This document shows, piece by piece, positions 17,309 through 41,589 of a stretch of 64,000 nt of DNA (position 1 is its first letter; every line of letters starts with the position of its first letter). This DNA comes from Candidatus Pacebacteria bacterium CG_4_9_14_0_2_um_filter_40_15 (GTDB lineage: Bacteria > Patescibacteriota > Microgenomatia > UBA1400 > PJMF01), in NCBI GenBank assembly GCA_002788675.1, contig PFRS01000001.1, positions 170,308 to 234,307 on the forward strand, given 5' to 3'. A program made the position numbers and the translations under genes. The notes below the pieces were generated by a model. The model searched no databases. It saw only the letters and a program-made list of their open reading frames with translations, and had not been told where the DNA came from.

Positions 17309-18232
17309 CTATTTTCCGCTCAAAATTGCGCCCTCTTTAAGGATAAATTCGACGGTACCTTCAGTATCAGTACGAAATAATCGACTACCAATATCCTCTA
17401 TTTGACGTAGTACTTGAGGTGAGGGATGCCCATATGTGTTATTTTTGCCAACTGAGACTACTGAAATTTCGGGTGATATTTCCCCGAGAAACTCCTTTGC
17501 CGTGCTTGTTTTAGCCCCGTGGTGCCCTATTTTTAGCACATTCACGGACTGTAGCGTTTGACTATCTAGCAATGCCAACTCGGCTTCTTTCTCGAGGTCA
17601 CCAGACAAGAATACACCCACCCCATCAATATCCATAATTATGCCTATAGATAGGTTGTTTTTTGTAGTTTTTGCAATTACATTTCCATCTAACCAACAGC
17701 TATTTTTATCCCATAACTGTGTTTCGGCTATGCTCTCAAAACAGTCACTTTCCAGGCGTGAGGCAAAAAAGGGATTGATCACCTTTCCAGTAATTTTTGT
17801 ATCTAAATGAATAATTTCACCATTAAACGGAAGTACTACTTCTCCTCCAGTGGCATGTATCTGGCTTATTTCCTCGAGTACTGTGCTTGAAATGAGTGTG
17901 TCTGGCTCTAGCGGTAAGTACATAATTGCTGAAACAACATACGATTCAAAGACAAATGGAAAGCCCCCAATGTGATCTGCATCTGGATGAGTTAACACTA
18001 CTAACTCAATTTTTTTATCCCAAAATGGCATCTTTTCTTCAAGACATTCTAAAACAGATGCATTTCTGCCTGTATCTACAAGCATTTGAGTTCCCCCATG
18101 GGTTATAAGGATAGCATCTCCTTGACCAACATCGCAAAAGATTACTCGCGACTGAGTCGTTGTTTCCTCAATAAAAAGGCCTCCAGCAACAAGAAAGCTT
18201 ATCAAGATGAGATTATAAAAAAGGCGTAGCAC
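17309..18232 (-). CDS. comEC: ComEC/Rec2 C-terminal metallo-beta-lactamase domain (downstream fragment of a frameshifted comEC)
   Basis: CDVGQGDAILI and HPDADHIGG MBL motifs. It begins with GTG overlapping the upstream fragment by 20 nt, in the +1 frame. Confidence 0.65.
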   Translation of the reverse strand: MLRLFYNLILISFLVAGGLFIEETTTQSRVIFCDVGQGDAILITHGGTQMLVDTGRNASVLECLEEKMPFWDKKIELVVLTHPDADHIGGFPFVFESYVVSAIMYLPLEPDTLISSTVLEEISQIHATGGEVVLPFNGEIIHLDTKITGKVINPFFASRLESDCFESIAETQLWDKNSCWLDGNVIAKTTKNNLSIGIIMDIDGVGVFLSGDLEKEAELALLDSQTLQSVNVLKIGHHGAKTSTAKEFLGEISPEISVVSVGKNNTYGHPSPQVLRQIEDIGSRLFRTDTEGTVEFILKEGAILSGK

Positions 18233-19202
18233 GATACTGAAAATACCTTCTTCTTGAGAAGAATACTAATAAGAGCGCCAGATAATACAGAAGAACTGTA
18301 GTAAAGGTTACTTTATACGAAATATTGGTTGGAAAATATGCCCCTACCTCAAGGAGTAATGAAAATGCACGAACAAGCACTGTAAATGCACTCACCAATG
18401 GCAGGCTCGGCATGTTTGCGGACGAAAACACTAGCATAGACGCTGTCTGCCAGGCTAAAAGAACGAATCCAAAGAAGAGTAAAAGAGCTACTACGGGAGA
18501 AAACACTACAGAAAAGAAAATACTTAGTGGATTCCAAGCCCCAAAGTAAAACAACAACAGCGGAGCTATGCACATATTCACGTACACTGACGTTTTTAAT
18601 TGTGAAACAACATACTCTCCAATATTGGCGATTCTATAGCGCGGAACAAGAAAGTACAGTGAAAACACTGCCCCATACGAGAGTAAGAATGATGCAGAAA
18701 CTACGGTCAGATCCGACGTGGGCAACACAGTACAGATGGTATAGAACCCAACTAGAAGTAGATACACATACTTCCTAGAGCTCAACCGTTTTAGGATAGT
18801 ACCTCCAAATACATACCACTGCATAACCAGAACCCTAATAATTGGAGTTGAAAATCCGATCATAGCGCCAAAGACAGTTAAGAATAGTAACGACACCCAG
18901 AGCTTAACTACCCATGGTATTGGCAACCACCTTACTGATTTTAAAATGTATCCTCGCAGCAAACTAACATGCATACCTGAAATGACAAAAAAATACAACG
19001 TCCCTGTAGTTTTTATTTGTAACATGGTTGAGTTTGACAAATCAGCGCTATTTCCAAGCAACAAACTATTAAAATAACCACTCGGGGTCACCTCGAGTAG
19101 CCTTTTTACGTTCGAAAGTAACAAATCTAGATAATTAGTGAGGTATGTGCTGAACATGCGCTGCCGAACTTTAAGCCCTTCTCTTTTTGCAATACTTTGC
19201 AA
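18213..19202 (-). CDS. comEC: ComEC/Rec2 competence (polytopic membrane channel) domain (upstream fragment of frameshifted comEC)
   Basis: LLLGNSADLSNSTMLQIKTTGTLYFFVISGMHVSLL competence-domain signature and many TM helices. It terminates inside an A6/T6 homopolymer. Confidence 0.65.
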   Translation of the reverse strand: MQSIAKREGLKVRQRMFSTYLTNYLDLLLSNVKRLLEVTPSGYFNSLLLGNSADLSNSTMLQIKTTGTLYFFVISGMHVSLLRGYILKSVRWLPIPWVVKLWVSLLFLTVFGAMIGFSTPIIRVLVMQWYVFGGTILKRLSSRKYVYLLLVGFYTICTVLPTSDLTVVSASFLLSYGAVFSLYFLVPRYRIANIGEYVVSQLKTSVYVNMCIAPLLLFYFGAWNPLSIFFSVVFSPVVALLLFFGFVLLAWQTASMLVFSSANMPSLPLVSAFTVLVRAFSLLLEVGAYFPTNISYKVTFTTVLLYYLALLLVFFSRRRYFQYRATPFL

Positions 19203-19655: not shown

Positions 19656-20357
19656 TTACAACTGTATCAATTGTTTTAGTTCTTCAAATACTGATTCTGA
19701 CAAGACTTCCTTTTCTACCAGTTCTTCTATTCGAGCATACGGTCTGTTAGCAACTATAGCCTCTGCACGCTTTGCACCGACTCCGGGCAGTGTATCAAGC
19801 TGCTCAACTGAACCAAAATTAATTGACACCACAGTTCCCTCCTCACCTGCATTTTGTGCTGTCTTTTCTGTTGCTGCAGACTGATGAGCTGTGTGTAGCA
19901 AAGTGGTGAGTTCGCTACACACATCCAAAACATCCTGATCTTCAAGAAATGGAATGTACACGCCTTCAGCATCATTAAGTCGATGCGCTAAATTGAGAGT
20001 TGTCTGGACAAAAATGCTGTCAGCATTACTCGCAAAACCACCTGCTGTGGTAACCAAGTCACCTACCCGGCTTCCGTTAGCAAGTTGATACATACCAGGA
20101 TTTGATACTGCTCCTGATATTGCAACCGTCACGTTCCGAGACTCCTCTGGAGGAGTTACTTTCTCATCTTGAGAATCAGCTTGAGGACAAGCAATAACGT
20201 CTGGTTCAAGGACTTCATACGCTTGAGTAGCACCAACAAATACCCAAGAGCCAAACCCCACACTACAAATGCCAAGTAAAAAGCAAAATGAAAGTATCAC
20301 CCTCATGAGGGTTTGTTTTGATAGACGTAACAATAAAAACTTAAGATCAGGAAACAT
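19656..20357 (-). CDS. comEA: ComEA: SLBB domain plus tandem helix-hairpin-helix DNA receptor
   Basis: N-terminal TM. SLBB region (VTVAISGAVSNPGMYQLANGSRVGDLV). C-terminal HhH pair (LDTLPGVGAKRAEAIVANRPYARIEEL). An alternative ATG lies at 20306. Confidence 0.8.
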   Translation of the reverse strand: MFPDLKFLLLRLSKQTLMRVILSFCFLLGICSVGFGSWVFVGATQAYEVLEPDVIACPQADSQDEKVTPPEESRNVTVAISGAVSNPGMYQLANGSRVGDLVTTAGGFASNADSIFVQTTLNLAHRLNDAEGVYIPFLEDQDVLDVCSELTTLLHTAHQSAATEKTAQNAGEEGTVVSINFGSVEQLDTLPGVGAKRAEAIVANRPYARIEELVEKEVLSESVFEELKQLIQL

Positions 20358-20443: not shown

Positions 20444-23400
20444 CTAATTTGATTGGGCACTCGAGGTACTGACGAGATCAGTCTGAAGGTCTACTTGTGC
20501 AGATACTGTAGCAGTTGACTGAGGTTCAGGCGAGACGACTGGAGTCTCAGTAGTAGGTGCAGGACTTGGTGTTGAAGTTGAAGTTGGTGTTGGTGTTGCA
20601 ACAGGTGCAGGAGTTAAGCCAGAAGCTCCAGCTGAATCCAAAACTTGCACAGGACTTGCTGGAGCGTTGTCGCTTAGCACGGCAAACCATTGCATTGTTC
20701 GATCACTTTCGTTAGAAGTTTTAAATTTCACTACAAAACCGATATTTGTAACAGATTCAACTGAATACTCACCAGAAAACACTTCTGTTCCAGATAAGAA
20801 CACCGTAGGAACCTCAGAAAACGGCTTTTTAAAGTTCACTTGTATTCTTGTCGCACCAGCAGGAACCACAAATGTGCCCAGTGTTTCACCTTCAAAGCGA
20901 ACAGCGTCTTTAAAGACAACTTGTCGCATAAAAGCAACAGAATCTGCAAACTCAGCTTTGGCTGAAAAGACCACGTTGGTTAAAAACTTCCACATACCAT
21001 CGCTGAGCGATAGATACTGTGCCCAATTCGCAAATTCAGCAGATTGAGTACTTTCTGTTGTTTGACCCAACACCACGCCTGTTGCAGTTACGACTGCTCC
21101 ATTAGCATCAATTTTAAGCGCCAAAGCATCGATTTGCTGTTGCTGTTCCTGCATAGCACTAACCAAAAGCGTTGGTAATCGAGAGTAGTTAATTCCCATG
21201 TACCCATCAACCTGGTTAGTGAAGGTAATCTCAGGGAAAATCTTTGCAACATCCTGGGCAATCAGACCGATGTCACTACTGCCGCCGTCTTTCCAGTTGA
21301 AGGTGTAGGTCTGCAACTGCATAACTTTGCTCAGTACCTCTGCTCCACTCAAATCAACCAAGTTTTCTTTAAGCCGTATGTCAGAACTTGAGGTGGTTAG
21401 GGTTCCATCTGCAGTCAAGTTAAGATCGGCACTGTAGGTACCAGAACCAACGGCGCTGAAGCGGGCATTGCCGACGACATCCAGCTTTATGCCTGGAACT
21501 GTTGAGCCAATTCCCACATTCTCTGTGCTAGAATCTACAAATAAGACACCATCATTAGTGTCACCATCCCAAGAGAAGTCCATATCCGTTTGGTTTGCCC
21601 AGTTTCCACTAAAGATAGCTGCTTCAACTTGGATACTTGGTGTACCACCTGCCTGCAAACGCAGTTTATTGTTTCCAAAGTCCATCTTGGTATCTGTGTC
21701 ACCATTGTGATATACCTCACCCCCCGGATAAACTCCAACTCCAATGTTGCCTGAAACATCTAATTTTGTAGCTGGAGATGAGGTGCCAATTCCCATGTTT
21801 CCACCAACTGACAAATCATAGTTAAAGCGGCTCGTACCAAAACTAGTACTTACCGAAAACACTGAATTACAACAATCCCTAAAAAGAGCTATGTCACCGT
21901 TGGTTCCACCAGCATTAAACTGCAACCAACCACTGCCAATACCATATCCAACAGTTTGAATTGAAGTAGATTGGTTTTCGGCGTTGTAGAGAGATAACAC
22001 CCCACTATTCGAAACCTTCATACGCGTTGCACCGCTGGCACTAGCAACAATAATATCTTGATCTCCAGTTTCATTAAAGATACTCAAGGCTTTGCCTGTT
22101 ACAGCCCCTTGCACATCAAGTTTGCTGACAGGACTATCTGTGCCAATTCCAATAGTTTCGGCTGAAGCATCAATTGTGAATACATTATAGTTTGTATCGC
22201 CGTTCCAGATAAAGTCGAGATTAGCCCTATTTAGATTACCTGTTAAGTAGTCATTTGTTCCTTCTGAAAGTGTCAAAAAACGAAGTCCTCCAGCCTGGAA
22301 CTCAAGTTGATCTGTTGAGGCGACAATCTTGGTATCAATGTCCCCTCGACTGATTATTGAACCATTAAAACCAATATCCCCTGCCACATCGAGCATATAT
22401 CCTGGAATGGTCGTACCAATTCCCAAATTACCAACTGTATCTAGAGCCATAAAGTATGGTGCACCCGTTCCAAACAATAGCGCATTACTCTCGTAGGTTT
22501 GTTGTGTCAAAATCTTCCAAGTTGCTCCCGCTAAACCACTCTTCAAGAAATATCCTGCCGAGTAGCCTGAATCTGAAGTATACGCACGGATGAGTGAATC
22601 TTTACCAGCACCTGCCTCAACATCGAGTCTAACTGTTGGTGCATTAGTTCCAATACCAATCATTCCTGCGCTATCATCTATAAAGAATGAATTCGCAAAA
22701 TTAGCTGTTGCAATCTCAAAATCAGGATCTGTTCCAACAGTAGCAATATCTATTTTCCCGTCTGATCTTGAAATAAACCTGGTGTAATTGCTGGCGTCAT
22801 ACCCTACTCGTAATTGTTCTGCAGTATTTAAGATATGAACAACTGCATTTGGATTGGTGCCAAATCCGACATAATGAGAACTTGGATTTATTTCCATGAT
22901 CCTATTAGCAGCTGCAGCATTATTTGTGGCACCAATAATGAAGTTACCATTACTGTACTGCGTACCAGCCCCCATACCCATGTGAACACTTACTTCTGAA
23001 GCATTAGTTTTTGTAAAAACAAGCTGATCCTCTGTGTTCGAATAAAGATGAACTATGCTGGCAGGAGCAGTTGTACCAACACCTAAATTCCCACTCACAT
23101 TCAATGCAGCGTTGCTGCCCGTTGTTGAAACTTGCCATCCACCACCGCTCATACGCTCTAGAGTGGTGTCATATGTTGCCGATCCTCCTCCAACATTCCA
23201 GGTTCCAGAACCGGTCATTGCAAAACGACGATACCCTTCTGTGCTAATTCCTCCAGAAAATAACGAGTTTACACTATTATCGGTGATCAAGTTAAGGAAA
23301 GATCTACCATCTGAAAGCTTAATAAATCCATTATCAAATCCACCAGAAATCTCGGTAGCACCCACATTCCAGTCATTTATCTTCAATACAGTGTTGAAGG

Positions 23401-26400
23401 TATTTGGCGCTGCAGAACTTGAAAAATCAAGGAAACCATTTGCATCAATTTTTGTTATCGCAGTTCCTGAGCTATTTTGCCATTCGGTTAAATTCCCTGG
23501 AGTTGTAGCATTTGCTTGGAAAATTGAAGTTACTCCAGAGGCTGATCCTTTAACGTGTACTTTACTCACAGGAGAAGTAGTTCCAATTCCCACATTTCCT
23601 AAAGGACTTAATAACACATGTCCATCTGCATTTAGAGCAATATTTCCACCGTTATGAGCATAAATATCATAGTTATAGAATGTATGTCTTGCACTTGGTG
23701 TTATACAATTTCTGTTACTACAACCATACTGATCCCAAGTAATATTGCCACTTCTGTCTAGATTAAAGACTGTTGAACCTGAGGCACTGGCGCTAATGAT
23801 ATTTTGATTGCCTGTTTCATTGAGGATGACGAGGGCTTTGCCGGTGGCGTCGCCGTTTACGTTGAAAATGCCGATTGGAGAGGTGGTGCCGATGCCGACA
23901 TTGCCAGAATTATCTACTCTCATTATTTCTACGCCTTGGATTTTAAAAAGATTTGAGGAGCCCGCATACGTTGCGTCTAAGTTGGTATTTCCATTTATAG
24001 TATCGTAGTAGACAAAAAAGTCAGTGTTGCTTCTAAATAAACCACTTTTTGGAGCAGCTGTTTTTACTGAAATATAATTGCTACCAGCTACCTGATAACT
24101 TCTAATTTCTCCACTGCCTGAAGTGTAGCCAGAATCAATCACACCATCAACTGAAAGCTTGTTTTGAGGACTCGTTGTTCCGATGCCTAGGTTTCCATTT
24201 CTATCAATTCTCATAGCTTCAGAAAGAGCGGTCCCATTTGTCGTTGAAAATGCTAATGCAGATCCGTAACCTGCATACTTTATGCCATAAGCCTTTACAT
24301 TTACAACGGAAGTCCCATTTACAGCACCCTCATGAACCCCATCAAAACCAAGACCCGCATTAAAATTATATGCTGCCGTATTTATGAATAGTGACCCACC
24401 AGCACTTCCGTTTCCAGTTCCGCTTCCTATATTAACTAACCCAAATGATGGAGTATTTCCATTCCAGGTAATTCCTGTTGTCCCTGTAACGTTTAGTTTG
24501 CCTAACGGCGCTCTCGTGCCGATGCCTACGTTGCCATCATTCTGAATCACAAACCTAGTTGTCCCAGAAGCGCTTGCAGTAAATATACTTTGATTTCCTG
24601 TTTCATTCAGAATTGCTAAAGCCTTGCCTGTGGATGCTCCTTCAACATTGAGTTTTCCGATTGGGGTGGTGGTGCCTATACCGATATTGCCAAAATCACT
24701 AATTCTCACCCTCTCAACCCCCCCAACAGAAAATCCTAAGCTATCTGCTGTCCCCGCAGTTGGTTGAAAAATACCATTATCAACACCAGCACTCCCAAAA
24801 TTATATGCAGGTGTACCTGCAGTACCATAAGTATTATTAGTAAAACCTGATGCACTAAATCTTGAGTTAATATTTCCACCTGCACCATTAACACCCAGGA
24901 TAACTGTGCCACCACTGCCTCCTCTTAGTTCAATATTGCCTCCATCTATTCTGAGACCAGACGCACTGACAGAACCAAATATATTTGGAGCAGCACTATC
25001 AAGCACTTTAACATTTCCGTTCACATCAAGTTTTTGGGCTGGGGTTGTCGTGCCGATGCCTACATTTCCAGAACTATTTTGAAAATAAACATCACCCGAA
25101 TTAAAATTAATGTTACCTGATGCATCGAGTTGTTGTCTCACTGATGAACCTGAAAATAATTGTAGTTCATTAGACGCAATTAATTTAATAGGATATCCAC
25201 TTCCAGATATCGTTACCAATAAACTCCCTTGTCCAGATCTTTCGAATAATGCACCTGTTTCCATTCCCGTCATATGTAATTTATAACTTGGAGCTGTCGT
25301 CCCCACCCCCACATTCCCCATAAAATAAGAATTCCCTGTTCCATTTACCTGTAAGTTACTTCCCAAAGTAGTAAGTCCAGTTACTCCAAGTGTAGAAGAA
25401 AGTGTTGTAGCTCCAGATACTTCTAAGGTGTTATTTAAGTTAGAAGCACCAGTTACTCCAAGATTTCCTGATAGTGTTGTATTTCCAGTCACTCCAAGGG
25501 TTGTACTGGCTGTTAGTGCTCCTCCAACGTTGGTAGCTCCATTCAAATAAGTGGTCCCAACCACATGTAATTTACTAGTTGGAACAGTAGTTCCCAATCC
25601 AACATTAGTTCCATTGTCATATAAAACAGAATCAGTAATAGCAAAGGTACTAGAGAATTTAGTTAAATAATTAGTTGTGCCACTTCCACCCATAGAAGCA
25701 GATGTTCCACTACAGTTTCCTGTAGCTAAACAAACAATTCCAGAAGCATCTGGAAAGGTCCAGGTTCTACCTGCTGTTAGGTCTTGGGAGGTTATTGTTC
25801 CCGTAAATTGCCCTGCTCCCTGAGCAACGGGCGAAATTGAGATGGGGTCGGTGTTAACTGGTGAAACAGTAAATACTCCACTACTTGTTTGACTTCCTAA
25901 AGTTACATTTCCAGAGGAATCAATCTTAAAAAAGGTATTGCTTCCATCCGTGCTTTCTACTCTAAAAACATCTGCTGTCCCACTGGAAGCTTGCTTAACT
26001 ACCAGTCCAGTGGCTCCAATATTTGTTGGAGTGATTGTTTGCGTGCTGCCAGGGTTGTTTACCAAGCAAGTAGGACACACGTCTCCTCCACCACTTACCG
26101 TTCCCCAAGCTAGCGAGCCACTCGAAACAGTGAGCACTTCACCATCTCCGCCCAGTCCCAAAGCTGCCAAAGTATTGGCACCACTTGCATACAAAATGTC
26201 GCCAGTGTTGTAGGAGGCCAGACCCGTGCCACCGTTGGTGGTTGGTAATGTGCCAGTAAGATAACTTGCACCACTGGCCAAATTAAGAGGGCTGGAACTT
26301 ACTACCCCACCCAAACTACTCTGCATTATGCCTGTTGAAAGCCCTGAAAAAGTTATCGTTCCTGATGAAGTCAGTCCAGTTGCCCCAGTAATTGCACCTG

Positions 26401-27316
26401 CATTGAGAATGCCTCCTCCAGAGTTGTTAAATCCACTGAGAACAGTAGTGGTGCCAAGCACCGACAAATTGCCAGAGATTGTGGTATTTCCAGACACATA
26501 CAGCTTGCTGGTGGGATCGGTAGTACCAATTCCTACGTTGTCTGTTGCGGTTCCTAGCACAACTGATGCCCCATTTTTTGTCCAGCCAGATACATTGAGT
26601 GCTACGGCATCGGCAGCAACGGTAATGGTTTTCCCCGAGTTTGTGAGTGAAACTCCCGTGCCTGCCTCCCAGGTGAGCGTGTCATCGTTACTTTCTGCCG
26701 AAAGTGTAGTGGAACCAATCTTAAAATTTTTAAAAATATTCTGAGCAGATCCCAAATCGGTGTTTTGCAATACCAGTCGTTGATCGCCAGTTATGGTTAA
26801 TCCATCTTGGGCTTCGATCGAGTACACCACATTTGTAGCCTCGATTTCTCCGCCTTGTACTACTAAATCTCCTGCCACAGTTACATTGCCATCGATGTTG
26901 GCATCGCCTTGCACTTCGAGTGCCCCAAGTACCAACGCTTCAGCCAATGAAACAGTGTCCGAAAAAACTGTTTTAATTCTAAAAACTAAGCTGTCTGCTT
27001 CTTCTGGTGAAACAACTCCTTTTACCTGGCCCCGGCTCTGATCATCAGAAGTGCTGCCAAGTACGGTAGGTTTTTCAGGCGATACCTGGCCAGTTTTGGA
27101 CATCGGTCGAGTAGTTTCATAGCGACGGAGCACACCAAAACCAAAAGTGTACACACAACTAGTGGTCAAAACAAACAACCCCACAACAAAAAGTAGGGCC
27201 ACCGCTCTTTTCCTGAGGTGTGTGACCAATTCACGCATATATAGTATATGGTACTGTTTTTTCGAGGAAATATGCAGACGAAGATCGACCGAATAAAGAG
27301 GATCAAATATACTCAA
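20444..27316 (-). CDS. giant (2290-aa) membrane-anchored surface protein of tail-fibre-like repeats with internal peptidase-S74 chaperone domain
   Basis: N-terminal TM (AVALLFVVGLFVLTT). Dozens of G(N)VGIGTT(S/T)P..KL.V modules. SDIRLKENL...GLIAQDV...EQQQQIDAL module 314-224 aa from the C-terminus. PT-rich C-terminal linker. A possible alternative start lies at 27238. Confidence 0.85.
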   Translation of the reverse strand: MSIFDPLYSVDLRLHISSKKQYHILYMRELVTHLRKRAVALLFVVGLFVLTTSCVYTFGFGVLRRYETTRPMSKTGQVSPEKPTVLGSTSDDQSRGQVKGVVSPEEADSLVFRIKTVFSDTVSLAEALVLGALEVQGDANIDGNVTVAGDLVVQGGEIEATNVVYSIEAQDGLTITGDQRLVLQNTDLGSAQNIFKNFKIGSTTLSAESNDDTLTWEAGTGVSLTNSGKTITVAADAVALNVSGWTKNGASVVLGTATDNVGIGTTDPTSKLYVSGNTTISGNLSVLGTTTVLSGFNNSGGGILNAGAITGATGLTSSGTITFSGLSTGIMQSSLGGVVSSSPLNLASGASYLTGTLPTTNGGTGLASYNTGDILYASGANTLAALGLGGDGEVLTVSSGSLAWGTVSGGGDVCPTCLVNNPGSTQTITPTNIGATGLVVKQASSGTADVFRVESTDGSNTFFKIDSSGNVTLGSQTSSGVFTVSPVNTDPISISPVAQGAGQFTGTITSQDLTAGRTWTFPDASGIVCLATGNCSGTSASMGGSGTTNYLTKFSSTFAITDSVLYDNGTNVGLGTTVPTSKLHVVGTTYLNGATNVGGALTASTTLGVTGNTTLSGNLGVTGASNLNNTLEVSGATTLSSTLGVTGLTTLGSNLQVNGTGNSYFMGNVGVGTTAPSYKLHMTGMETGALFERSGQGSLLVTISGSGYPIKLIASNELQLFSGSSVRQQLDASGNINFNSGDVYFQNSSGNVGIGTTTPAQKLDVNGNVKVLDSAAPNIFGSVSASGLRIDGGNIELRGGSGGTVILGVNGAGGNINSRFSASGFTNNTYGTAGTPAYNFGSAGVDNGIFQPTAGTADSLGFSVGGVERVRISDFGNIGIGTTTPIGKLNVEGASTGKALAILNETGNQSIFTASASGTTRFVIQNDGNVGIGTRAPLGKLNVTGTTGITWNGNTPSFGLVNIGSGTGNGSAGGSLFINTAAYNFNAGLGFDGVHEGAVNGTSVVNVKAYGIKYAGYGSALAFSTTNGTALSEAMRIDRNGNLGIGTTSPQNKLSVDGVIDSGYTSGSGEIRSYQVAGSNYISVKTAAPKSGLFRSNTDFFVYYDTINGNTNLDATYAGSSNLFKIQGVEIMRVDNSGNVGIGTTSPIGIFNVNGDATGKALVILNETGNQNIISASASGSTVFNLDRSGNITWDQYGCSNRNCITPSARHTFYNYDIYAHNGGNIALNADGHVLLSPLGNVGIGTTSPVSKVHVKGSASGVTSIFQANATTPGNLTEWQNSSGTAITKIDANGFLDFSSSAAPNTFNTVLKINDWNVGATEISGGFDNGFIKLSDGRSFLNLITDNSVNSLFSGGISTEGYRRFAMTGSGTWNVGGGSATYDTTLERMSGGGWQVSTTGSNAALNVSGNLGVGTTAPASIVHLYSNTEDQLVFTKTNASEVSVHMGMGAGTQYSNGNFIIGATNNAAAANRIMEINPSSHYVGFGTNPNAVVHILNTAEQLRVGYDASNYTRFISRSDGKIDIATVGTDPDFEIATANFANSFFIDDSAGMIGIGTNAPTVRLDVEAGAGKDSLIRAYTSDSGYSAGYFLKSGLAGATWKILTQQTYESNALLFGTGAPYFMALDTVGNLGIGTTIPGYMLDVAGDIGFNGSIISRGDIDTKIVASTDQLEFQAGGLRFLTLSEGTNDYLTGNLNRANLDFIWNGDTNYNVFTIDASAETIGIGTDSPVSKLDVQGAVTGKALSIFNETGDQDIIVASASGATRMKVSNSGVLSLYNAENQSTSIQTVGYGIGSGWLQFNAGGTNGDIALFRDCCNSVFSVSTSFGTSRFNYDLSVGGNMGIGTSSPATKLDVSGNIGVGVYPGGEVYHNGDTDTKMDFGNNKLRLQAGGTPSIQVEAAIFSGNWANQTDMDFSWDGDTNDGVLFVDSSTENVGIGSTVPGIKLDVVGNARFSAVGSGTYSADLNLTADGTLTTSSSDIRLKENLVDLSGAEVLSKVMQLQTYTFNWKDGGSSDIGLIAQDVAKIFPEITFTNQVDGYMGINYSRLPTLLVSAMQEQQQQIDALALKIDANGAVVTATGVVLGQTTESTQSAEFANWAQYLSLSDGMWKFLTNVVFSAKAEFADSVAFMRQVVFKDAVRFEGETLGTFVVPAGATRIQVNFKKPFSEVPTVFLSGTEVFSGEYSVESVTNIGFVVKFKTSNESDRTMQWFAVLSDNAPASPVQVLDSAGASGLTPAPVATPTPTSTSTPSPAPTTETPVVSPEPQSTATVSAQVDLQTDLVSTSSAQSN

Positions 27317-27550: not shown

Positions 27551-28369
27551 ATGAAATTGAGTACATTTATTCGGAAACCAGCACTCACAGCCCTTGTACT
27601 TGGTAGTATCGCAGCCGTAGCATTTCCCTCACAACTCTTTGCTCAAGAAAAACTCGATACACCTCTGGGCATTGCCTACCAATTAAAGGTCGTCAGTGCC
27701 ATTGACGTCTTCAATGGCATGATCGTTTCAATTGGTGACAGTGCATATACCGAAAGTAACGGTACCTACGACCGCAATATGTATGGCGTTATCGACTTAT
27801 CACCGAGTATAGAGTTCACTTTTGGTAATACTGAAGATACTCTGCCTGTTATTGCTGATGGCACAGCCTACGTGGCAGTTTCAGGAGAAAATGGACCAAT
27901 TAACGAAGGTGACCTCATTACCAGCTCCTCAAAACCAGGAGTAGGTATGAAGGCAACAAAATCTGGCTTTACGTTAGGCGTTGCCGAAGAAAGCTACGCA
28001 GGAAGCACAGCGGAAGAACAAGGCTTAGTGGCAATTCGCATCAATAAACAGTTCACTTTTGGTGATGATTCACCAGATTCTGAAACTATTTCCGATCGTC
28101 TGCGAAACGTAGTAAGTTTAAGTGCAATTGCTGCCTTTGAAGAGCCAACCAAGGTTTTTAAGTATGTTGTGGCCGGAATCATTCTCACAATTGCAGTACT
28201 TGTCAGTTTTATTAGCCTGGGGCGCACGTCGCAAAAAGGAATTGAAGCCATTGGCCGAAACCCGCTGGCTCGCAGTAGCATTATAGCCAGTATTTTTGGT
28301 AATGTAGTGGTAGCCCTGTTTATGTTAGTAGCAGGAGTAGTAGGAGCGTACATCATGGTAACCCTTTAA
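27551..28369 (+). CDS. F-type ATPase c-subunit-like hairpin fused to signal peptide plus ~180-aa exported domain; lacks the conserved carboxylate
   Basis: The C-terminus GIEAIGRNPLARSSIIASIFGNVVVALFMLVAGVVGAYIMV aligns with the c-subunit loop/helix-2 (...IEGIARQPE...ALVEAL...), with Leu at the ion-binding Glu/Asp position. It is the first gene of the atp-like operon. Confidence 0.5.
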   Translation: MKLSTFIRKPALTALVLGSIAAVAFPSQLFAQEKLDTPLGIAYQLKVVSAIDVFNGMIVSIGDSAYTESNGTYDRNMYGVIDLSPSIEFTFGNTEDTLPVIADGTAYVAVSGENGPINEGDLITSSSKPGVGMKATKSGFTLGVAEESYAGSTAEEQGLVAIRINKQFTFGDDSPDSETISDRLRNVVSLSAIAAFEEPTKVFKYVVAGIILTIAVLVSFISLGRTSQKGIEAIGRNPLARSSIIASIFGNVVVALFMLVAGVVGAYIMVTL

Positions 28370-28370
28370 T

Positions 28371-28994
28371 ATGCAAGCATTCGACATCAACGTACTCTCT
28401 CTCTGGCTCATTTTTATTCTTGAGCTCATTATTGCTGGGATTGTACTTTCAGCCCACAGTAAAACCAAAAATTTCGAGAGAGACTATAAAAAAGCCATCA
28501 AAGATACACAAAAAGAACTTGAAGACGTGGTTACCGATACCGCCCGCGAAGCAAGTGAATCACTCGACGAAGTAAGCAGTGTTGCGCGAACAGCAGCTCA
28601 ACAAATACACGAACTTTCAGAGCGACTTAAAGAAGAAATCGAGACATCTCTCCTGACAGAAACAAAAGCACAACTCAGCAATCTAGAATCTTCAGCTAAA
28701 GAGCAAATTGCAGAACTTAATCAGGAGCTTATCGGCGCCGTGAGCCACACAAAATCACAAATGAACTCGCTGTTACTTGCACACGTTAAAGAAGCCACCA
28801 AGGAAATCGACACCTATCGCGATGAGCAAAAGTCAGCACTAGCAGAAAAAGCTGCAAACCAGGTGCAACTAGTTGCAAAACAGTACTTAAGTGAAAATCT
28901 TTCAAAAGAACAAGTACACACCCTCTGCTTAGCCCTTATTTCAAAAACATTAGAAGTGCGAAGTACTCCAAGTACCAAAGAGAAATCTGCCTAA
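28371..28994 (+). CDS. ATP synthase b-subunit-like stator protein
   Basis: One N-terminal TM helix followed by about 170 aa of charged coiled-coil. It sits in the operon position of atpF. Confidence 0.55.
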   Translation: MQAFDINVLSLWLIFILELIIAGIVLSAHSKTKNFERDYKKAIKDTQKELEDVVTDTAREASESLDEVSSVARTAAQQIHELSERLKEEIETSLLTETKAQLSNLESSAKEQIAELNQELIGAVSHTKSQMNSLLLAHVKEATKEIDTYRDEQKSALAEKAANQVQLVAKQYLSENLSKEQVHTLCLALISKTLEVRSTPSTKEKSA

Positions 28995-28997
28995 GCT

Positions 28998-29459
28998 ATG
29001 ACTGCCAACCAACTACAAGACTATCTTATTGAGTCAATCCACTCTGCCCACACGCTGTCAGCCCTGAGAACACATATCAGCACGCTGCGCAGCATGCTCT
29101 ATAGAAGTACCAGCAAAAAGCTCGATGCATACTTGCTGAATGAACTTCCTGAAAAGTTCTCCTTTGTAACTAAGCTACTGCGTGAAGCAGCCGACCCCAT
29201 TCAACAAGAAAAATTGCTCGAACTCACAGAAAAAATACTGCTTTCTTTTGAAACGCTCTACCTCACCCTACCCTACTCTCCAACCGAGAGCCAGTTGGGC
29301 AAGTATAAGCAGTTATTTGCTGCCCAAATTTCACAACCGTTCATAATTAAGGTTGAACTCGACCCCGATACTCTTGGCAAAATCACCTGGGAATTTGCAG
29401 GCGCACGCAAAACGGCTTCTGTGTTTGATACTTTGGCAGCAGAAGGAGGCCAGTTATGA
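28998..29459 (+). CDS. ATP synthase delta (OSCP)-like subunit
   Basis: 153 aa in the atpH position. The C-terminus is weakly OSCP-like (IIKVELDPDTLGKI...SVFDTL). Confidence 0.4.
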   Translation: MTANQLQDYLIESIHSAHTLSALRTHISTLRSMLYRSTSKKLDAYLLNELPEKFSFVTKLLREAADPIQQEKLLELTEKILLSFETLYLTLPYSPTESQLGKYKQLFAAQISQPFIIKVELDPDTLGKITWEFAGARKTASVFDTLAAEGGQL

Positions 29460-36545: not shown

Positions 36546-37262
36546 ATGACAAGGCGCCCACAAGACATGTATACTGAGGCTATGCAAATGGATAAGCGAC
36601 TTCCCTTTTTTATACTCAGTTTTGTGCTCATTGCCGTTTGGATCTCAGTTCCCTTCCTGTATACCTACTCTCTCCAGTTAGTGGCACTCACCTTTCTGCT
36701 TTTTATTTGGCTTCGTTTTAAACATAATCGAGAGAATGTTACTCAAATTATCCCCTCAAAAGGAAGCTCTGAGCTTATTCCCATTACAATCGTTTTTATG
36801 CTCCTTATCTCCGCTACCGGGAACACCCACTCTTGGGTGTACTCACTTACCTATGTGTATCTTTTTATCATGCTTTTCTCCCTGCCAAGAGGTACCGCAA
36901 TCATCATGGCCACCGGGACCTTATTACTCCAAGCCTTCTTAGTACACACATTTTCAGCTCAAGAACTCATTATTTTAATGAACATTCCAGTCATCACAAC
37001 AGTACTCCTCTTTGCAAAACAGCAGTATGAAAAAGCTACCCTCGAAGAGGAAATGCTTATGGAAGAAGACGAGCAACTTTCGTCCTCACTTACTGAAAAT
37101 GCTGCCTTGGAGTCATATATCAAGGAGTTTCTCTTACCTAAAACTGAGGTACTTTCGTCTCTAGAGGAGCCACAAACTGAACTCGAAAAAACACTCCATT
37201 CACAAATAACGTTGATCAGCACTGAGAGTCGAAAAATACTGGAGCGATCACAACAACAGTAA
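36546..37262 (+). CDS. polytopic membrane protein with acidic coiled-coil C-terminus (first gene of the surface-protein operon)
   Basis: Four to five hydrophobic helices, then a glutamate-rich tail (EEEMLMEEDEQLSSSLTE...). No family recognised. Confidence 0.5.
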   Translation: MTRRPQDMYTEAMQMDKRLPFFILSFVLIAVWISVPFLYTYSLQLVALTFLLFIWLRFKHNRENVTQIIPSKGSSELIPITIVFMLLISATGNTHSWVYSLTYVYLFIMLFSLPRGTAIIMATGTLLLQAFLVHTFSAQELIILMNIPVITTVLLFAKQQYEKATLEEEMLMEEDEQLSSSLTENAALESYIKEFLLPKTEVLSSLEEPQTELEKTLHSQITLISTESRKILERSQQQ

Positions 37263-37276
37263 CTATACAATTAACT

Positions 37277-38032
37277 ATGTCTACACGCACGCTCACCAGA
37301 ATTATTTTGAGCAGCCTTTGCTTACTCTGCCTGACGGCATTTTCTTGGCGCATATCTGAAGTTCAAGCAGAGCGACTAGAGTCCGACTCATACGTGATTC
37401 AATTTGGCAACTTCAACGTAACTTCCGGAGAAAAAAGTTCGAGTAACTACAACGTCACCGATACTGTTGGTCAAACCGCCGCCGGCGCGTTTGGAGAGTA
37501 CGGGACCTCTGGCTACTTTGTTGGGGCAGGTTTTCAATACATTTACCAAATAAAGACTTTTAGCTTCATCATTAGTGACCTCACTATGGATCTAGGAGAA
37601 CTAACTGACGGTGCCTTTGGCACTGACAATCACACTCTCGAGATAACTACACGAGGAGCTGGTGGCTACACAATCTATGCCTACGAACAACACCCCCTCC
37701 GCATTCCAACAACAAGCTACATAATTAATGATACAACTTGCGATGCAGGCACCTGTACAACCTCAGCAGCCAGTATTTGGACCAATCCCAGCATCGATGG
37801 CTTTGGATTCAATATTCAAGGTGATGACATTCCAACAGATTTCGTAAATAACACCTACTTCCGTCCATTTGCTAATGACGAAGCAGCAGCTACCATGCAA
37901 CCAGTAATGTCATCTTCCAATATTGCCTTGCAACGTACTTCGACGGTAACCTATCAAGCCGCAAAAGCCGGAGATACAGCCGCTGGTCAATTCCAAACTG
38001 CCGTAGTGTACGTCGCTGTACCAGGATATTAA
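37277..38032 (+). CDS. secreted WxL-like (small) surface protein
   Basis: Signal peptide. Homologous to the C-terminal domain of the 505-aa neighbour. Shared landmarks are L..LGEL, TTCDAGTC / ATCTGDSTASNC, GFGFNIQG / GFGYSLDN and a hydrophobic Y-rich C-terminus. Confidence 0.5.
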   Translation: MSTRTLTRIILSSLCLLCLTAFSWRISEVQAERLESDSYVIQFGNFNVTSGEKSSSNYNVTDTVGQTAAGAFGEYGTSGYFVGAGFQYIYQIKTFSFIISDLTMDLGELTDGAFGTDNHTLEITTRGAGGYTIYAYEQHPLRIPTTSYIINDTTCDAGTCTTSAASIWTNPSIDGFGFNIQGDDIPTDFVNNTYFRPFANDEAAATMQPVMSSSNIALQRTSTVTYQAAKAGDTAAGQFQTAVVYVAVPGY

Positions 38033-38034
38033 GT

Positions 38035-39000
38035 ATGAACAAAAAAAGAACTCAAAAATTCATTTCTGCACTAGCTCTTAGTGTGGTACTTGGCTTAGTA
38101 TCTTTGTACCCAAACTCTGTTTCTGCACAAGGTTTTAATCTTACGGTCACTCCTGAAGTACATTACATGCGAATAAAACCAGGCTCAAAGATACGTCACA
38201 CCATCACTCTCGAAAACAAAGGTGACGTAGCTCTGACAGTAACCCCCACAATCTATGACTTTGAAGCGGATGGTGAGTCTGGACGAGCAATCCTCAAAAG
38301 TGCCACCACATTCCCATATCTAGATCTCGAACACATTCAGAACAGCTCACTCACCATACCTCCACATAAACGAGCTCAGCTTGGGCTACTCTTTTCTGTT
38401 CCAGAAGATGCCCCCGAAAAGGAATACCCCCTTACGGTACTCTTTAAAAGTGAACCCGTGCAGTCTCAGACAGAGACTTCACAATCTCAACTAGTTGGTG
38501 CGATAGGAAGCAATCTTATTGTACTTATTTCTCAAGATGAACAAACTTCAGACTTAATAAATATTGATTCAATATCAATCCCCTTCTTTGTTGATAGTTT
38601 TAAAAAGGTTACCTTACAACCTAAGATAAAGAACAATCACTTTGCCGCTACAAACACAGCTGGAACGGTGATTGTGAAGAATATGTTTAACACTGAAGTT
38701 GCTCGATTTAATATTTTTCCAGATACAATCTTGGGATACAGTTCAAGAATACTTAGAGCCCTCAAGACAGAATTTCAACCAGATATCGAGCCAGAGGCTG
38801 TGCCTTTTGCATTTAAACCATCATTTCTTCTTGGTTTATATACAGTAGAAGTCAGCATTACTGCCCCCTATACCAGTGCATATTCTGATGAAGTAATTGC
38901 ATTCGACACTTTTACGTTCTTTGCAGTACCTATTATTCCAATACTGGTTGGGTTGCTGGGAATTGTGAGTGCCATTGGGTATGTGATATATAAGAAATAA
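38035..39000 (+). CDS. DUF916/DUF3324-like surface protein: signal peptide, Ig-like beta domain, C-terminal TM anchor plus KK
   Basis: FNLTVTPEVHYMRIKPGSKIRHTITLENKGDVALTVTPTIYDF Ig-like strand pattern. Single C-terminal TM (AVPIIPILVGLLGIVSAIGYVIYKK). Confidence 0.45.
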   Translation: MNKKRTQKFISALALSVVLGLVSLYPNSVSAQGFNLTVTPEVHYMRIKPGSKIRHTITLENKGDVALTVTPTIYDFEADGESGRAILKSATTFPYLDLEHIQNSSLTIPPHKRAQLGLLFSVPEDAPEKEYPLTVLFKSEPVQSQTETSQSQLVGAIGSNLIVLISQDEQTSDLINIDSISIPFFVDSFKKVTLQPKIKNNHFAATNTAGTVIVKNMFNTEVARFNIFPDTILGYSSRILRALKTEFQPDIEPEAVPFAFKPSFLLGLYTVEVSITAPYTSAYSDEVIAFDTFTFFAVPIIPILVGLLGIVSAIGYVIYKK

Positions 39001-39077
39001 ACTGGTACTTGAAGCCCACACCCTTTCCGTTTAGACTGGATCTAGGTCAAGAATTTGGTCGCTATTGTAGGTATGCT

Positions 39078-40526
39078 ATGAAACATCGTAAATCAAAAAA
39101 ACTCATTGTGTTATCAACTTTTATTCTTGCCATCGCAGTTGCAGGAAAATGGGCACAAAATAGCGAGTCTGCTAGTTTAACTTCTGTTTCGGTTACCGTC
39201 TCAAACCCACGTCCTTCTTTTAGAGGTGTACTTGGAGCTGGAAATACTGTTGGAACTTCACAAGTTATTATTAATACTTCTGGATATCCTTCAACTACAA
39301 CAGCTCAACTCCAAACTGATGACATTCTCTTAGTAGGTAATGCAGGTACCATGAGTCCTTATACCATTACTAATGTAGTAAGTAATTCACTGGCAAATAT
39401 TACTCCAGTCCTTGCTGCTGGTGATGCCGATACTTCTGATGATGTCATTTCAACCCAATCTGCCGTTCATACCGTCAGATTTACTACTGCTAACGCTATT
39501 TCAAATGGTGGGTTTAGAATTTTAGTTCCTGCTCATGGAACTGCTACTGATGCAAATGATGGTCTACCTGATCAAGGCGCCTTTGATTTCGGAACAGCTG
39601 CCCCAACCGTGACCTGTCCAACAGACATAACTGGGTATGATTTTGTTACAGGTACTGCAACTGCAAGTGCTGTAACAATCGGAAGTACTGACTATCATGC
39701 ATATGAGTGTCTGTATTCTGGAGTTGGTGCTATTGCAACTGTCTTTGATGGCACAACCAATGATGCTATATCTATTAACGACATTATAAATCCAGCACCT
39801 GCTAGTGGCCACACAACAGGCACCGCAGATTCATACAGAATCATCCTCCAACATTTAGACAGTTCATACACAGCTGTAGATAGTACCACTGTTGCTATTG
39901 GCGTTATAGAAGCTGTCCGTGTAACTGCAAGCGTCGCACCACAGATTACCTTCTCTATTGCTGGTGTAACCAGTGGATCAACTTCATGCGGAGTAACCAC
40001 AGACGTCACAACAACCGCAACTGCTGTTCCACTTGGTGAACTATCTATCGCTTCTTTCACAGATGCAGCACAAACGCTGACTGTCTCAACTAATGCTACA
40101 AATGGCTATGCTGTAACCGCTTTCGAGAGTGACCAACTTGGACTCGATGGAGCAACATGTACCGGAGATAGCACTGCTTCAAACTGTATTCCCGATTCAG
40201 TTGGTGACAATGCAGCACTCAGTCATACTGCTAATGATGAATGGAATACCACAACAGTAAAAGGATTTGGATACTCTCTGGACAACGCAGATGCAAATAC
40301 TGTCGCTTTCGAGTACACAACAGCTACCGGTACCTGTACTGGAACATACTGTGCAAAGCAATTTGCAGATAACGAGGATGGCCAGGCAGCGCAACAACTC
40401 TTTAGTAGCACAACAGTGGCAGACAGTGAAAATGTTGATGTCTGCTACAGAGCTGTGATCTCAAACGTACAAGCCGCTGGTTTTTATGAAAACTACGTAA
40501 CCTATACTGCTACTGCTACATTCTAG
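39078..40526 (+). CDS. secreted WxL-like (large) surface protein, Thr/Ala-rich
   Basis: Signal peptide MKHRKSKKLIVLSTFILAIAVAG (ATG 39078; TTG alternative at 39009). The C-terminal ~190 aa are homologous to the 251-aa protein. Confidence 0.5.
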   Translation: MKHRKSKKLIVLSTFILAIAVAGKWAQNSESASLTSVSVTVSNPRPSFRGVLGAGNTVGTSQVIINTSGYPSTTTAQLQTDDILLVGNAGTMSPYTITNVVSNSLANITPVLAAGDADTSDDVISTQSAVHTVRFTTANAISNGGFRILVPAHGTATDANDGLPDQGAFDFGTAAPTVTCPTDITGYDFVTGTATASAVTIGSTDYHAYECLYSGVGAIATVFDGTTNDAISINDIINPAPASGHTTGTADSYRIILQHLDSSYTAVDSTTVAIGVIEAVRVTASVAPQITFSIAGVTSGSTSCGVTTDVTTTATAVPLGELSIASFTDAAQTLTVSTNATNGYAVTAFESDQLGLDGATCTGDSTASNCIPDSVGDNAALSHTANDEWNTTTVKGFGYSLDNADANTVAFEYTTATGTCTGTYCAKQFADNEDGQAAQQLFSSTTVADSENVDVCYRAVISNVQAAGFYENYVTYTATATF

Positions 40527-40542
40527 TACTCAGAAAGAACAA

Positions 40543-41589
40543 ATGAAGACTGCCCGCCCAATTCACACTCTTAAAAAAATTGCTACCTTAGCTGACGCTT
40601 TAGGAGTTGGAACCTTACTGTTCTCGAATACAATTTTTGCTCAAGACTTCACTCAGACTGATGATACGGTAACCCTTACAGCCATCCCGCCAAGAGTTGG
40701 TGATCAAGAACCAATTAAGCTTGCTCCTGGTGCTAAAGAACAAGTGCAACTTAGAATTAGGAATAATTCAACAAAAGCCATAACCATCAACTCGGTTGCT
40801 CAAGATTTTATGCTTGATCTTGATGGACAAACCCCTATTCCACTTAACGAAGATTCAGGAAGTAGATGGAGCTTAGCAGACTGGCTCGTTGTCGCACCAA
40901 ATCAACAAACTATTGAACCACAAGAAACTGCTGGAACTTCTGTTCTTATCGAAGTTCCTGAAGATGCTCTCCCTGGTGGGCACTATGCAATGGTTACCCA
41001 CGAACCAACCACTGGAGTTGTTTCCGAAGATGGTGAATCAGCTTCTGTAATCAGTCAAAAAGTTGGTTCTCTCTTTTATGTTATCGTTGATGGCGTTATT
41101 CATGAGGAAGCCTTTATTCGCGACTTCTCATTTCCCCAGCTCACAGAAGTCGGACCTGTTGATTTTTCATTCTTTGTTGATAATCAATCTGATATTCACA
41201 TCAAGCCACAGGTTTCAATTGAGATCTATAACCTCTTTAACCAAAAAATTGACACTATCCAGATAGAGAGCAAAAATGTATTCCCATTATATAGTCGTGG
41301 TTTCTCTGGAAGTTGGGATCGTGTTTGGGGTCATGGTTTTTACACTGCCAAACTCATAATGAGTTATGGTGAACAAGGAAATGTTGCACTTGCTTCAACT
41401 ACTTTCTGGCTCTTCCCAGTCAAGATAGTACTATCAATATTGGTTATTATATTGGTCCTACTTGCAATGCTCATTTCAATCCGAAGACATATCTTGCACA
41501 AAAACCAAGATAAAGACAAACAGATCAAAGAATTAGAGGATCAGCTAGCTGAAGTCAGTAAAGATCAACTCGAAAAACACGAAGAATAG
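40543..41589 (+). CDS. DUF916/DUF3324-like surface protein with C-terminal TM and charged cytoplasmic tail
   Basis: Signal peptide, two beta-rich domains, TM (VKIVLSILVIILVLLAMLI), then a lysine/glutamate-rich tail. Confidence 0.45.
   Translation: MKTARPIHTLKKIATLADALGVGTLLFSNTIFAQDFTQTDDTVTLTAIPPRVGDQEPIKLAPGAKEQVQLRIRNNSTKAITINSVAQDFMLDLDGQTPIPLNEDSGSRWSLADWLVVAPNQQTIEPQETAGTSVLIEVPEDALPGGHYAMVTHEPTTGVVSEDGESASVISQKVGSLFYVIVDGVIHEEAFIRDFSFPQLTEVGPVDFSFFVDNQSDIHIKPQVSIEIYNLFNQKIDTIQIESKNVFPLYSRGFSGSWDRVWGHGFYTAKLIMSYGEQGNVALASTTFWLFPVKIVLSILVIILVLLAMLISIRRHILHKNQDKDKQIKELEDQLAEVSKDQLEKHEE

Follow-up and report, generated by a model that had tools for sequence, protein, structure and literature searches.

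A giant surface-fibre candidate in a Pacebacteria genome, with an internal S74 chaperone and a conserved C-terminal end-piece

The window analysed here is a stretch of 64,000 nucleotides (nt) from contig PFRS01000001.1 of Candidatus Pacebacteria bacterium CG_4_9_14_0_2_um_filter_40_15, a member of the Candidate Phyla Radiation (CPR, Patescibacteria). A gene on its minus strand encodes a protein of 2264 amino acids (aa) in which an intramolecular chaperone of the Peptidase_S74 family is embedded and followed by a further module. The best explanation is that this protein is a giant surface fibre of the Pacebacteria cell, built like phage tail fibres and the MAT fibres of Bdellovibrio. The full version of this explanation – a giant anchored fibre, trimerised on an S74 template, released by self-cleavage from a disposable end-piece and used in attachment – is given a probability of about 0.6.

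In the proposed maturation, a single N-terminal transmembrane (TM) segment would keep the fibre in the membrane. After export by the Sec pathway, the S74 chaperone (aa 1952 to ~2050) would, by homology with T5 pb1, K1F endosialidase and Bd3182, bring three chains into register and template the triple beta-helical shaft. Only in a correct trimer would Lys1957 activate Ser1952 and the Ser1951–Ser1952 bond be cut; the 313-aa C-terminal fragment would then detach, so that the shaft end (…LTADGTLTTSS) becomes the distal tip of the mature fibre. The helix, linker, sandwich and tail that extend beyond the chaperone would be part of the disposable pro-domain and leave with the chaperone. Before that, this extension could act as an extra trimerisation clamp, as a tether to envelope glycans, or as both, and would keep the three last-exported C-termini together near the surface during the extracytoplasmic folding of a 2000-aa fibre. 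The mature fibre would most likely serve attachment to other cells, a role suggested because cultivated CPR bacteria are episymbiotic and MAT fibres bind prey. The domain identities, the intact and conserved catalytic residues, the cellular setting and the coupling of the end-piece to self-cleaving chaperones across its family are observations; we infer the topology, the trimer, the cleavage, the role of the extension and the adhesion alike.

The features of the protein are as follows. Residues are numbered from the ATG (2264 aa) throughout, unless marked as open reading frame (ORF) numbering.

20444–27238, minus strand: giant surface-fibre gene, ATG start, stop codon at 20444–20446, 2264 aa
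27128–27205, minus strand: N-terminal hydrophobic segment, aa 12–37, AVALLFVVGLFVLTTSCVYTFGFGVL, flanked by RKR and RR
21386–26956, minus strand: fibre shaft, aa ~95–1951, rich in G, T, S and N
24494–24628, 23708–23842 and 21962–22096, minus strand: three copies of a ~45-aa shaft module, GKALxILNETGNQxIxxASASG, at aa 871, 1133 and 1715
21464–21517, minus strand: last GNVGIGT-type motif, aa 1908–1925, VGIGSTVPGIKLDVVGNA, just upstream of the predicted cleavage site
21089–21385, minus strand: whole intramolecular chaperone, aa 1952–~2050, alpha/beta S74 core and the start of a long helix
21230–21385, minus strand: Pfam Peptidase_S74 (PF13884) match, aa 1952–2003, 51.2 bits, E=1.6e-13
21383–21385, minus strand: Ser1952 codon, predicted from homology with T5 pb1 Ser1264 and Bd3182 Ser782 to be both nucleophile and scissile residue
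21368–21370, minus strand: Lys1957 codon, predicted general base at Ser+5 (compare T5 pb1 Lys1269)
21041–21061, minus strand: low-complexity motif TTESTQS, aa 2060–2066, followed by an amphipathic, poorly modelled segment
20666–20899, minus strand: terminal beta-sandwich, aa 2114–2191, modelled with a predicted local distance difference test score (pLDDT) of about 90, resembling H-type lectins and the C-terminal domains of tailspikes
20447–20659, minus strand: low-complexity C-terminal tail rich in Pro and Thr (PT-rich), aa 2194–2264 (71 aa), 52% S+T+P

The S74 chaperone and the putative fibre that carries it

A preliminary description of the window had placed a Peptidase-S74 domain at 21110–21400. 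The peptide it quoted is present there on the minus strand, with the Pfam match inside the interval, and the score is well above the gathering cutoff of the family (22 bits); the identification is far beyond chance. The catalytic motif S-D-I-R-L-K (SDxxxK) is intact, with Ser1952, Asp1953 and Lys1957, and the Ser–Lys dyad that the description had expected is both present and conserved. Alignments of 10 and of 55 relatives show no variation at the Ser, Asp, Lys, GxIAQ and P positions, and both Ser and Lys are kept in all 51 of the 51 relatives with an embedded S74 domain whose sequence covers the catalytic site. Strict conservation of the dyad in this embedded architecture argues that selection has retained the cleavage chemistry in spite of the internal position of the domain. 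Judged from the sequence, the cut is predicted to fall between Ser1951 and Ser1952.

Solved S74 chaperones are found with a profile of the region, among them gp37, the long tail fibre of phage S16 (6f45, E=5.5e-13), the tail fibre 8jov, the intramolecular chaperone auto-processing (ICA) domain of MyRF (7dc3) and GA-1 (3gud). The profile is needed for this, as a single-sequence phmmer search of the C-terminal 349 aa against PDB gave no match. A monomer AlphaFold2 (AF2) model of aa 1894–2193 has a mean pLDDT of 79.9, with values >90 over the S74 core, and Foldseek matches it to the MyRF ICA (7dc3, E=1.7e-6, TM-score 0.60 on the target) and also to 3gw6. In BFVD, 363 viral models match, the top ones named either S74 or 'intramolecular chaperone auto-processing domain'. 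These profile and fold matches to phage chaperones and MyRF bear out the earlier suggestion of phage folding machinery. Trimer formation and autoproteolysis of the window protein itself would follow by homology.

The S74 domain is not at the C-terminus of the precursor: 313 aa lie between the scissile Ser and the C-terminus, versus about 107 aa in most relatives. The matches of the initial homologue search were all <500 aa and covered the S74 part; NCBI already names proteins of this type 'tail fiber domain-containing protein'. The unusual internal position could suggest that the domain is an inactive relic, serving only as a structural spacer, but S, D, K, GxIAQ and P are intact and invariant across relatives, and a relic is very unlikely. 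A C-terminal position is a typical, not a strict, feature of the family; MyRF and proteins with a C-terminal sorting domain of the type IX secretion system (T9SS) break it too. The released fragment had been put at ~220 aa. It is predicted to be 313 aa long, the chaperone itself included, since only the first part of the chaperone falls within the Pfam model; the fragment comprises the chaperone, the long helix, the ESTQS linker, the beta-sandwich and the PT-rich tail.

Upstream of the chaperone, the shaft contains 16 GNVGIGTTxPxxKLxV motifs (pattern [VIMLY]G[IVLF][GN][TS]xx[PAN]) at an irregular spacing of 52–311 aa, versus 0.16 expected from shuffled sequences and a maximum of 2 in 2000 shuffles. 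The GNVGIGTTSP-type repeats described earlier are therefore real as a motif, but the 16 copies mark out modules of variable length and do not form tandem repeats. The last of them, VGIGSTVPGIKLDVVGNA, aligns with its counterpart in MyRF, GRVGINTDRPDEALVVHGN. PHROG tail-fibre families match the shaft and S74 region (phrog_18345, at aa 880–1360, and phrog_1980; E=1e-36 and 1e-31), and the region profile aligns to the Bdellovibrio fibre structures Bd2133 (8ond) and Bd3182 (8ojn/8onc), and also to 8ol4, 8oml and 8on4. The shaft had been called tail-fibre-like, and both kinds of match agree with this. As the Bdellovibrio and MyRF structures to which the loop motif aligns are trimeric, the alignment lends indirect support to a triple beta-helix just upstream of the chaperone. 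Each copy of the ~45-aa module comes right after a GNVGIGT motif, and the module is also found in relative P0257.

At the N-terminus, a hydropathy scan gives aa 12–37 a maximum of 2.32 in a 19-residue Kyte–Doolittle window (KD19), and no other segment of the protein exceeds 1.8. By hydropathy this single segment is presumed to be a signal-anchor, rather than a cleaved signal peptide, that holds the protein in the membrane, in line with the membrane anchoring proposed before. A lipoprotein N-terminus was considered and rejected: 'LTTSC', judged by eye, is a poor fit to the usual lipobox.

The gene is cellular. Directly downstream, on the same strand, are genes for an M16 peptidase, ArgRS, ComEC (two ORFs) and ComEA; upstream and divergent are ATP synthase genes, with LeuRS, MurD and MreB farther out. 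The window showed no phage genes. In 34 blocks of the assembly collection the identical protein of 2264 aa occurs with its neighbours unchanged, on contigs of up to 1.19 Mb named Candidatus Pacebacteria. Because of these housekeeping flanks and long contigs, the gene is placed on a cellular CPR chromosome and not on a phage, and the earlier statement that the protein is host-encoded holds. A phage or prophage tail-fibre gene, or its remnant, could be supposed from the S74 part, whose identity to phage tail-fibre proteins reaches 43% and which 691 phage records match, and from the PHROG matches. However, in a set of 50,697 phage genomes the matches stop at the S74 part, with 0 records at >=80% coverage, the protein has an N-terminal TM anchor, and the same gene recurs with the same neighbours in many metagenomes. 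The prophage reading was rejected on genomic context and is close to refuted; phage origin and the inactive relic are both close to excluded.

The 2290 aa given in the preliminary description correspond to the long minus-strand ORF from a TTG at 27316 (20444–27316, 2290 codons), which encloses the interval 21110–21400; that ORF exists, but the ENA, JGI and NCBI calls all start at the ATG at 27238, giving 2264 aa. The NCBI copies (PIR63573.1 and others) are listed as 'hypothetical protein' in metagenome-assembled genomes (MAGs) of Candidatus Pacebacteria/Paceibacterota, and no NCBIfam model matches the protein.

The end-piece and its family in CPR giant proteins

The chaperone is followed by a beta domain and a PT-rich segment, as had been described. 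A long helix, modelled by AF2 at aa ~2018–2078, continues out of the S74 core. In relatives, both S74-type and G2-type (see below), an acidic Ser/Thr motif (E-S-T-Q/E-S, often repeated) and, after it, an amphipathic helix are conserved between the coiled coil and the end-piece; the motif might serve as a linker, be glycosylated or provide a second site of processing. The terminal sandwich falls narrowly below the cutoff of Pfam H_lectin (PF09458), with 23.0 bits versus 24 (E=8.8e-5, aa 2158–2212 in ORF numbering). Its model matches H-type lectins by Foldseek (4q56, E=1.3e-3; 3wmp; 2ccv; 2vme; TM-score about 0.5 on the target), and also the C-terminal domains of the tailspikes of Pam1 (7eea), phi297 (4ru5) and Sf6 (2vbm), the K1 lyase (7w1c), and the foot of the R2 pyocin fibre (6cl6). 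The model thus suggests an H-lectin beta-sandwich fold, equally close to tailspike C-terminal domains. The sugar-binding sites of H-type lectins lie between protomers. K1-lyase_C (PF24146) is near or above threshold in relatives.

An exhaustive profile search for the end-piece found 3662 cluster representatives at E<=1e-3 and 1354 at E<=1e-10. In all of them it lies at the extreme C-terminus, in proteins of up to 7408 aa. Among the closest relatives, several are likewise of the long form, with a similar sandwich at the end, …(D/E)xxFxW(W/F)I(V/L). Chaperones were counted in 80 of the 147 retrieved top-scoring representatives, those of at least 600 aa. A self-cleaving chaperone lies upstream of the end-piece in 77 of these 80: 35 have S74, 38 have a Peptidase_G2-like domain and four have both. 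The three without either include one with a divergent S74 and one with a Hint-like self-processing motif. The G2-like domain is recognised by a GRVPVKV motif; in P0164 it reaches 30.4 bits with PF11962 (cutoff 25). The S74 protein of the window lacks this domain.

The window protein belongs to this family. Against a hidden Markov model (HMM) of the 147 representatives built with the window left out, its end-piece (aa ~2114–2191) scored 25.8 bits (E=2.8e-10) in a single-sequence test of the C-terminal segment run with --max, which makes it a genuine but divergent member. The chaperone of a family member lies 190–600 aa upstream of the C-terminus by definition, and the S74 domain of the window protein ends 223 aa before the C-terminus.

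Named members of the family come from WWE3, Microgenomates, Saccharibacteria, Moraniibacteriota, Paceibacteria and Parcubacteria. Outside CPR, the end-piece is carried by three Bdellovibrionales MAGs and one short Saprospiraceae contig. This taxon list is a small sample, drawn from an exact-pattern genome scan with four closer sequences. The Bdellovibrionales MAGs (L015, L016 and L018) carry the CPR end-piece sandwich, in L015 behind a G2-like chaperone, a link between the CPR family and the lineage from which MAT fibres were described. A search of the literature for S74 or G2 with Patescibacteria or CPR found no paper describing the family, an absence that is not proof; the chaperone-plus-end-piece family in CPR seems to be undescribed.

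Across CPR lineages the end-piece is conserved on shafts of 900–7400 aa, a pattern that suits an assembly module better than a ligand-specific tip. This conservation across phyla on very different shafts favours the pro-domain reading. So does its position: the same end-piece stands behind two unrelated self-cleaving chaperones, which argues that it belongs to the cleaved-off unit and not to the mature fibre.

The main rival reading takes the sandwich for an adhesive tip. S74 would then serve mainly in trimerisation and registration, the C-terminal trimer would stay attached non-covalently or cleavage would be partial, and the sandwich would bind glycans on the host cell. The fold is consistent with this, as it resembles the receptor-binding 6cl6, the lectins 4q56, 2ccv and 3wmp, discoidin II and the tailspikes 7eea, 4ru5, 2vbm and 7w1c, and the H_lectin score lies just below its cutoff. 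The NS74 fibres of Bdellovibrio have tips that are a beta-sandwich or a lectin (PMC10769870). However, characterised S74 chaperones leave after cleavage, and ligand binding needs an exposed shaft end; the 51/51 conservation of Ser and Lys would be needless in a pure trimerisation module; and conservation across phyla and shafts is unlike that of typical hypervariable tips. An adhesive tip is the strongest competitor of the pro-domain, and still an unlikely one. The cluster of the window protein has 11 members that differ by only 0–4 residues, so microdiversity is uninformative on which part might be a variable tip.

Less probable again is a release switch like that of MyRF, in which the C-terminal fragment is held in the wall or S-layer, both ends of the fibre are tethered, and the S74 cut frees the distal end. 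In a variant applying to the relatives, S74 cleavage would free a soluble trimeric lectin that acts independently. MyRF is a precedent for two functional halves parted by an internal S74/ICA domain, and in Bacteroidota S74 separates the fibre from the T9SS export/anchor signal (PF18962). The PT-rich tail also suits this switch, such tails being typical of wall-spanning segments. However, there is no LPXTG wall-anchor motif in the C-terminal tail and no second TM segment in a hydropathy scan of the whole protein. The release switch also largely overlaps with the pro-domain reading, differing only in the later fate of the fragment.

Several observations weigh against a disposable pro-domain on an anchored trimeric fibre. 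The resemblance of the sandwich to receptor- and carbohydrate-binding domains would be more expected of an adhesive tip than of a piece that is discarded. The sandwich is divergent, with only its last ~80 aa matching the family HMM at 25.8 bits, and there is no significant pairwise similarity to the sandwich of the sibling protein in the same window. The beta-helix part of the module, found in most relatives, is lacking from the window protein. The count of 77/80 rests on the best-scoring representatives, which are biased towards one subfamily. The modelling was monomer-only AF2, and the N-terminal anchor was assigned by hydropathy rather than by a signal-peptide predictor.

A broader version, held with considerable doubt, is that the end-piece behind a self-cleaving chaperone (S74 or G2-like) marks out a class of giant envelope fibres, as yet undescribed, that spans CPR and extends to some Bdellovibrionales, and whose cleaved-off C-terminal trimer is a working part and not waste. 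This trimer could be a wall- or glycan-bound nucleation platform for the C-to-N folding of fibres of several thousand residues; or it could be set free as a trimeric lectin that acts on host cells.

Some relatives depart from the common layout. In P0001, P0002, P0006 and P0008, a Cys-loop (KKLCVGxTCVTExQL) and a P/T/E-rich tail take the place of the sandwich. In P0234 (961 aa), a Hint/intein-like block (CFSGDTLIRT…VHN) replaces the chaperone upstream of the end-piece, and would be a third kind of self-processing module in this slot. Many giant family members (P0116, P0125, P0132, P0145–P0147, P0152, P0159, P0203, P0205 and P0256) have an N-terminal helix-turn-helix (HTH) of the MerR/excisionase type (…VSxSTLRRWE…), with one TM segment behind it at aa ~100–180; two of them carry the JGI name 'DNA-binding transcriptional MerR regulator'. 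Their layout, with a DNA-binding domain in the cytoplasm, one TM segment and a fibre of several thousand residues, is reminiscent of ToxR-like membrane-bound regulators, and on the broader version above the fibre could double as a contact sensor coupled directly to DNA binding. The S74 protein of the window has no N-terminal HTH. P0090 (414 aa), from the cluster of the window protein, aligns to aa 1–1290 with 876 alignment columns missing, either by internal deletion between repeated modules or as an assembly artefact.

CPR bacteria make up a large share of bacterial diversity. To our knowledge, all cultivated members live attached to other microbes, and we know of little, apart from type IV pili, on how they recognise and hold their hosts. 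The window protein ties giant 'hypothetical proteins' of CPR to phage tail fibres and MAT fibres, a structurally understood class, and it offers a concrete, testable maturation step in the cleavage at Ser1952. That a cellular fibre can carry an S74 domain is established: the Bdellovibrio MAT fibres make host-encoded S74 fibres a known kind, and the design is not new in principle. The less ordinary part is the conserved end-piece behind the chaperone, together with the duality of S74 and G2 across CPR giant proteins. The coupling of end-piece and chaperone provides a handle for annotating thousands of such proteins, and raises the question of how very long trimeric fibres fold outside the cell.

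The sibling gene and other features of the window

The window holds a second giant gene, of 5979 aa, with these features.

45736–63675, plus strand: sibling giant gene, 5979 aa
aa 93–172 of the sibling: Phage_int_SAM_1-like (integrase-SAM-like) domain, N-terminal and cytoplasmic
aa 262–285 of the sibling: single TM segment, followed by a giant ectodomain
61345–62022, plus strand: Peptidase_G2-like chaperone, aa 5204–5429, 98.8 bits with a G2-like HMM built here
63427–63672, plus strand: terminal beta-sandwich, aa 5898–5979, 51.2 bits with the end-piece HMM, ending in …NWWIVN

From its domains, this gene reads as a sibling of the S74 protein, of G2 type and from the same genome. A tRNA-Leu(aag) predicted by ARAGORN at 50551–50635 (plus strand) falls within its ORF and is probably a false positive.

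Three other annotated features are listed here.

19656–20357, minus strand: comEA (SLBB+HHH), beginning 86 nt downstream of the giant S74 gene
17309–19202, minus strand: comEC, two ORFs (Competence, then Lactamase_B), after comEA
41596–43653: surface protein with Big_13 and CarboxypepD_reg domains

The shared orientation of the giant gene and these DNA-uptake genes may be chance; no conserved synteny with comEA/comEC was evident among the downstream ORFs of 11 related loci. Five consecutive ORFs with no Pfam match (238–505 aa; 36546–41589, plus strand) lie upstream of the Big_13/CarboxypepD_reg surface protein, and three more (27551–29459, plus strand) precede the ATP synthase genes.

Comparison with known systems

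The chaperones of phage proteins – K1F endosialidase (3GW6), T5 pb1 (4UW8), S16 gp37 (6F45) and GA-1 gp12 (3GUD) – belong to the same Pfam family as the window domain. They share its fold and its motif of Ser and Lys(+5), and trimer-dependent folding followed by release would be expected here as well. In T5 pb1 the residues are Ser1264 and Lys1269, cleavage requires a correct trimer, and the chaperone is then released (PMC4690869). The phage domains stand at the extreme C-terminus of virion proteins and fold in the cytoplasm, whereas the window domain is internal, belongs to a cellular gene and would fold outside the cytoplasm. The phi29-type Peptidase_G2 intramolecular chaperone (PF11962), unrelated in fold and chemistry, is a functional analogue that takes the place of S74 in the siblings.

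The modelled fold of the terminal sandwich matches H-type lectins (Helix pomatia agglutinin, discoidin II) and the C-terminal sandwiches of phage tailspikes and depolymerases. The phage sandwich belongs to the mature spike, whereas that of the window protein lies beyond the predicted cleavage site.

The 'tail fiber domain-containing proteins' of Bacteroidota also have an internal S74, with about 110 extra residues after it. Their extra domain, a T9SS sorting domain (PF18962), is a known secretion signal and has no relation to the CPR end-piece. Relatives with S74 and PF18962 include P0046, P0056, P0064–P0072 and P0076, for example from Dysgonamonadaceae; in these, S74 would cut the fibre from its secretion or anchor signal.

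The MyRF ICA (7DC3) is the best structural match, and in both proteins S74 is internal to a membrane protein. MyRF also shares the loop V-G-I-x-T-x-x-P-x-x-x-L just upstream of the cleavage site. The topology is reversed: in MyRF the TM segment is C-terminal to the ICA and an N-terminal transcription factor is freed, whereas in the window protein the TM segment is N-terminal and a C-terminal piece is predicted to be freed.

The MAT (mosaic adhesive trimer) fibres of Bdellovibrio bacteriovorus (PDB 8ojn/8onb/8onc and 8ond) are cellular S74 fibres; 13 of the 21 end in S74, and self-cleavage has been shown (Caulton 2024, PMC10769870). Bd3182 cuts itself at S782 of SDxxxK, and the S782A mutation blocks cleavage (PMC10769870). 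MAT fibres are about 1000 aa long, with a cleaved signal peptide and a conserved, beta-rich N-terminal domain of ~130 aa (PMC10769870). The window protein is about twice as long, at 2264 aa, and appears to have an N-terminal TM segment in place of the signal peptide and MAT N-terminal domain; a search with aa ~70–400, made without a direct comparison to the MAT N-terminal sequence, found few CPR relatives and no Bdellovibrio-named proteins. Its S74 is internal, with about 215 aa beyond the chaperone, whereas the S74 of MAT fibres is the terminus. The host belongs to CPR, a different phylum from Bdellovibrio, with an envelope presumed to be monoderm-like. In other respects the two are alike: both are chromosomal and tail-fibre-like (with the surface location presumed for the window protein), both have the recurring loop motif GNVGIGTTxPxxKL, and both have an S74 with SDxxxK, to which the window protein adds a further module. 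Bdellovibrio, the bearer of the MAT fibres, is itself a bacterium that lives on other bacteria.

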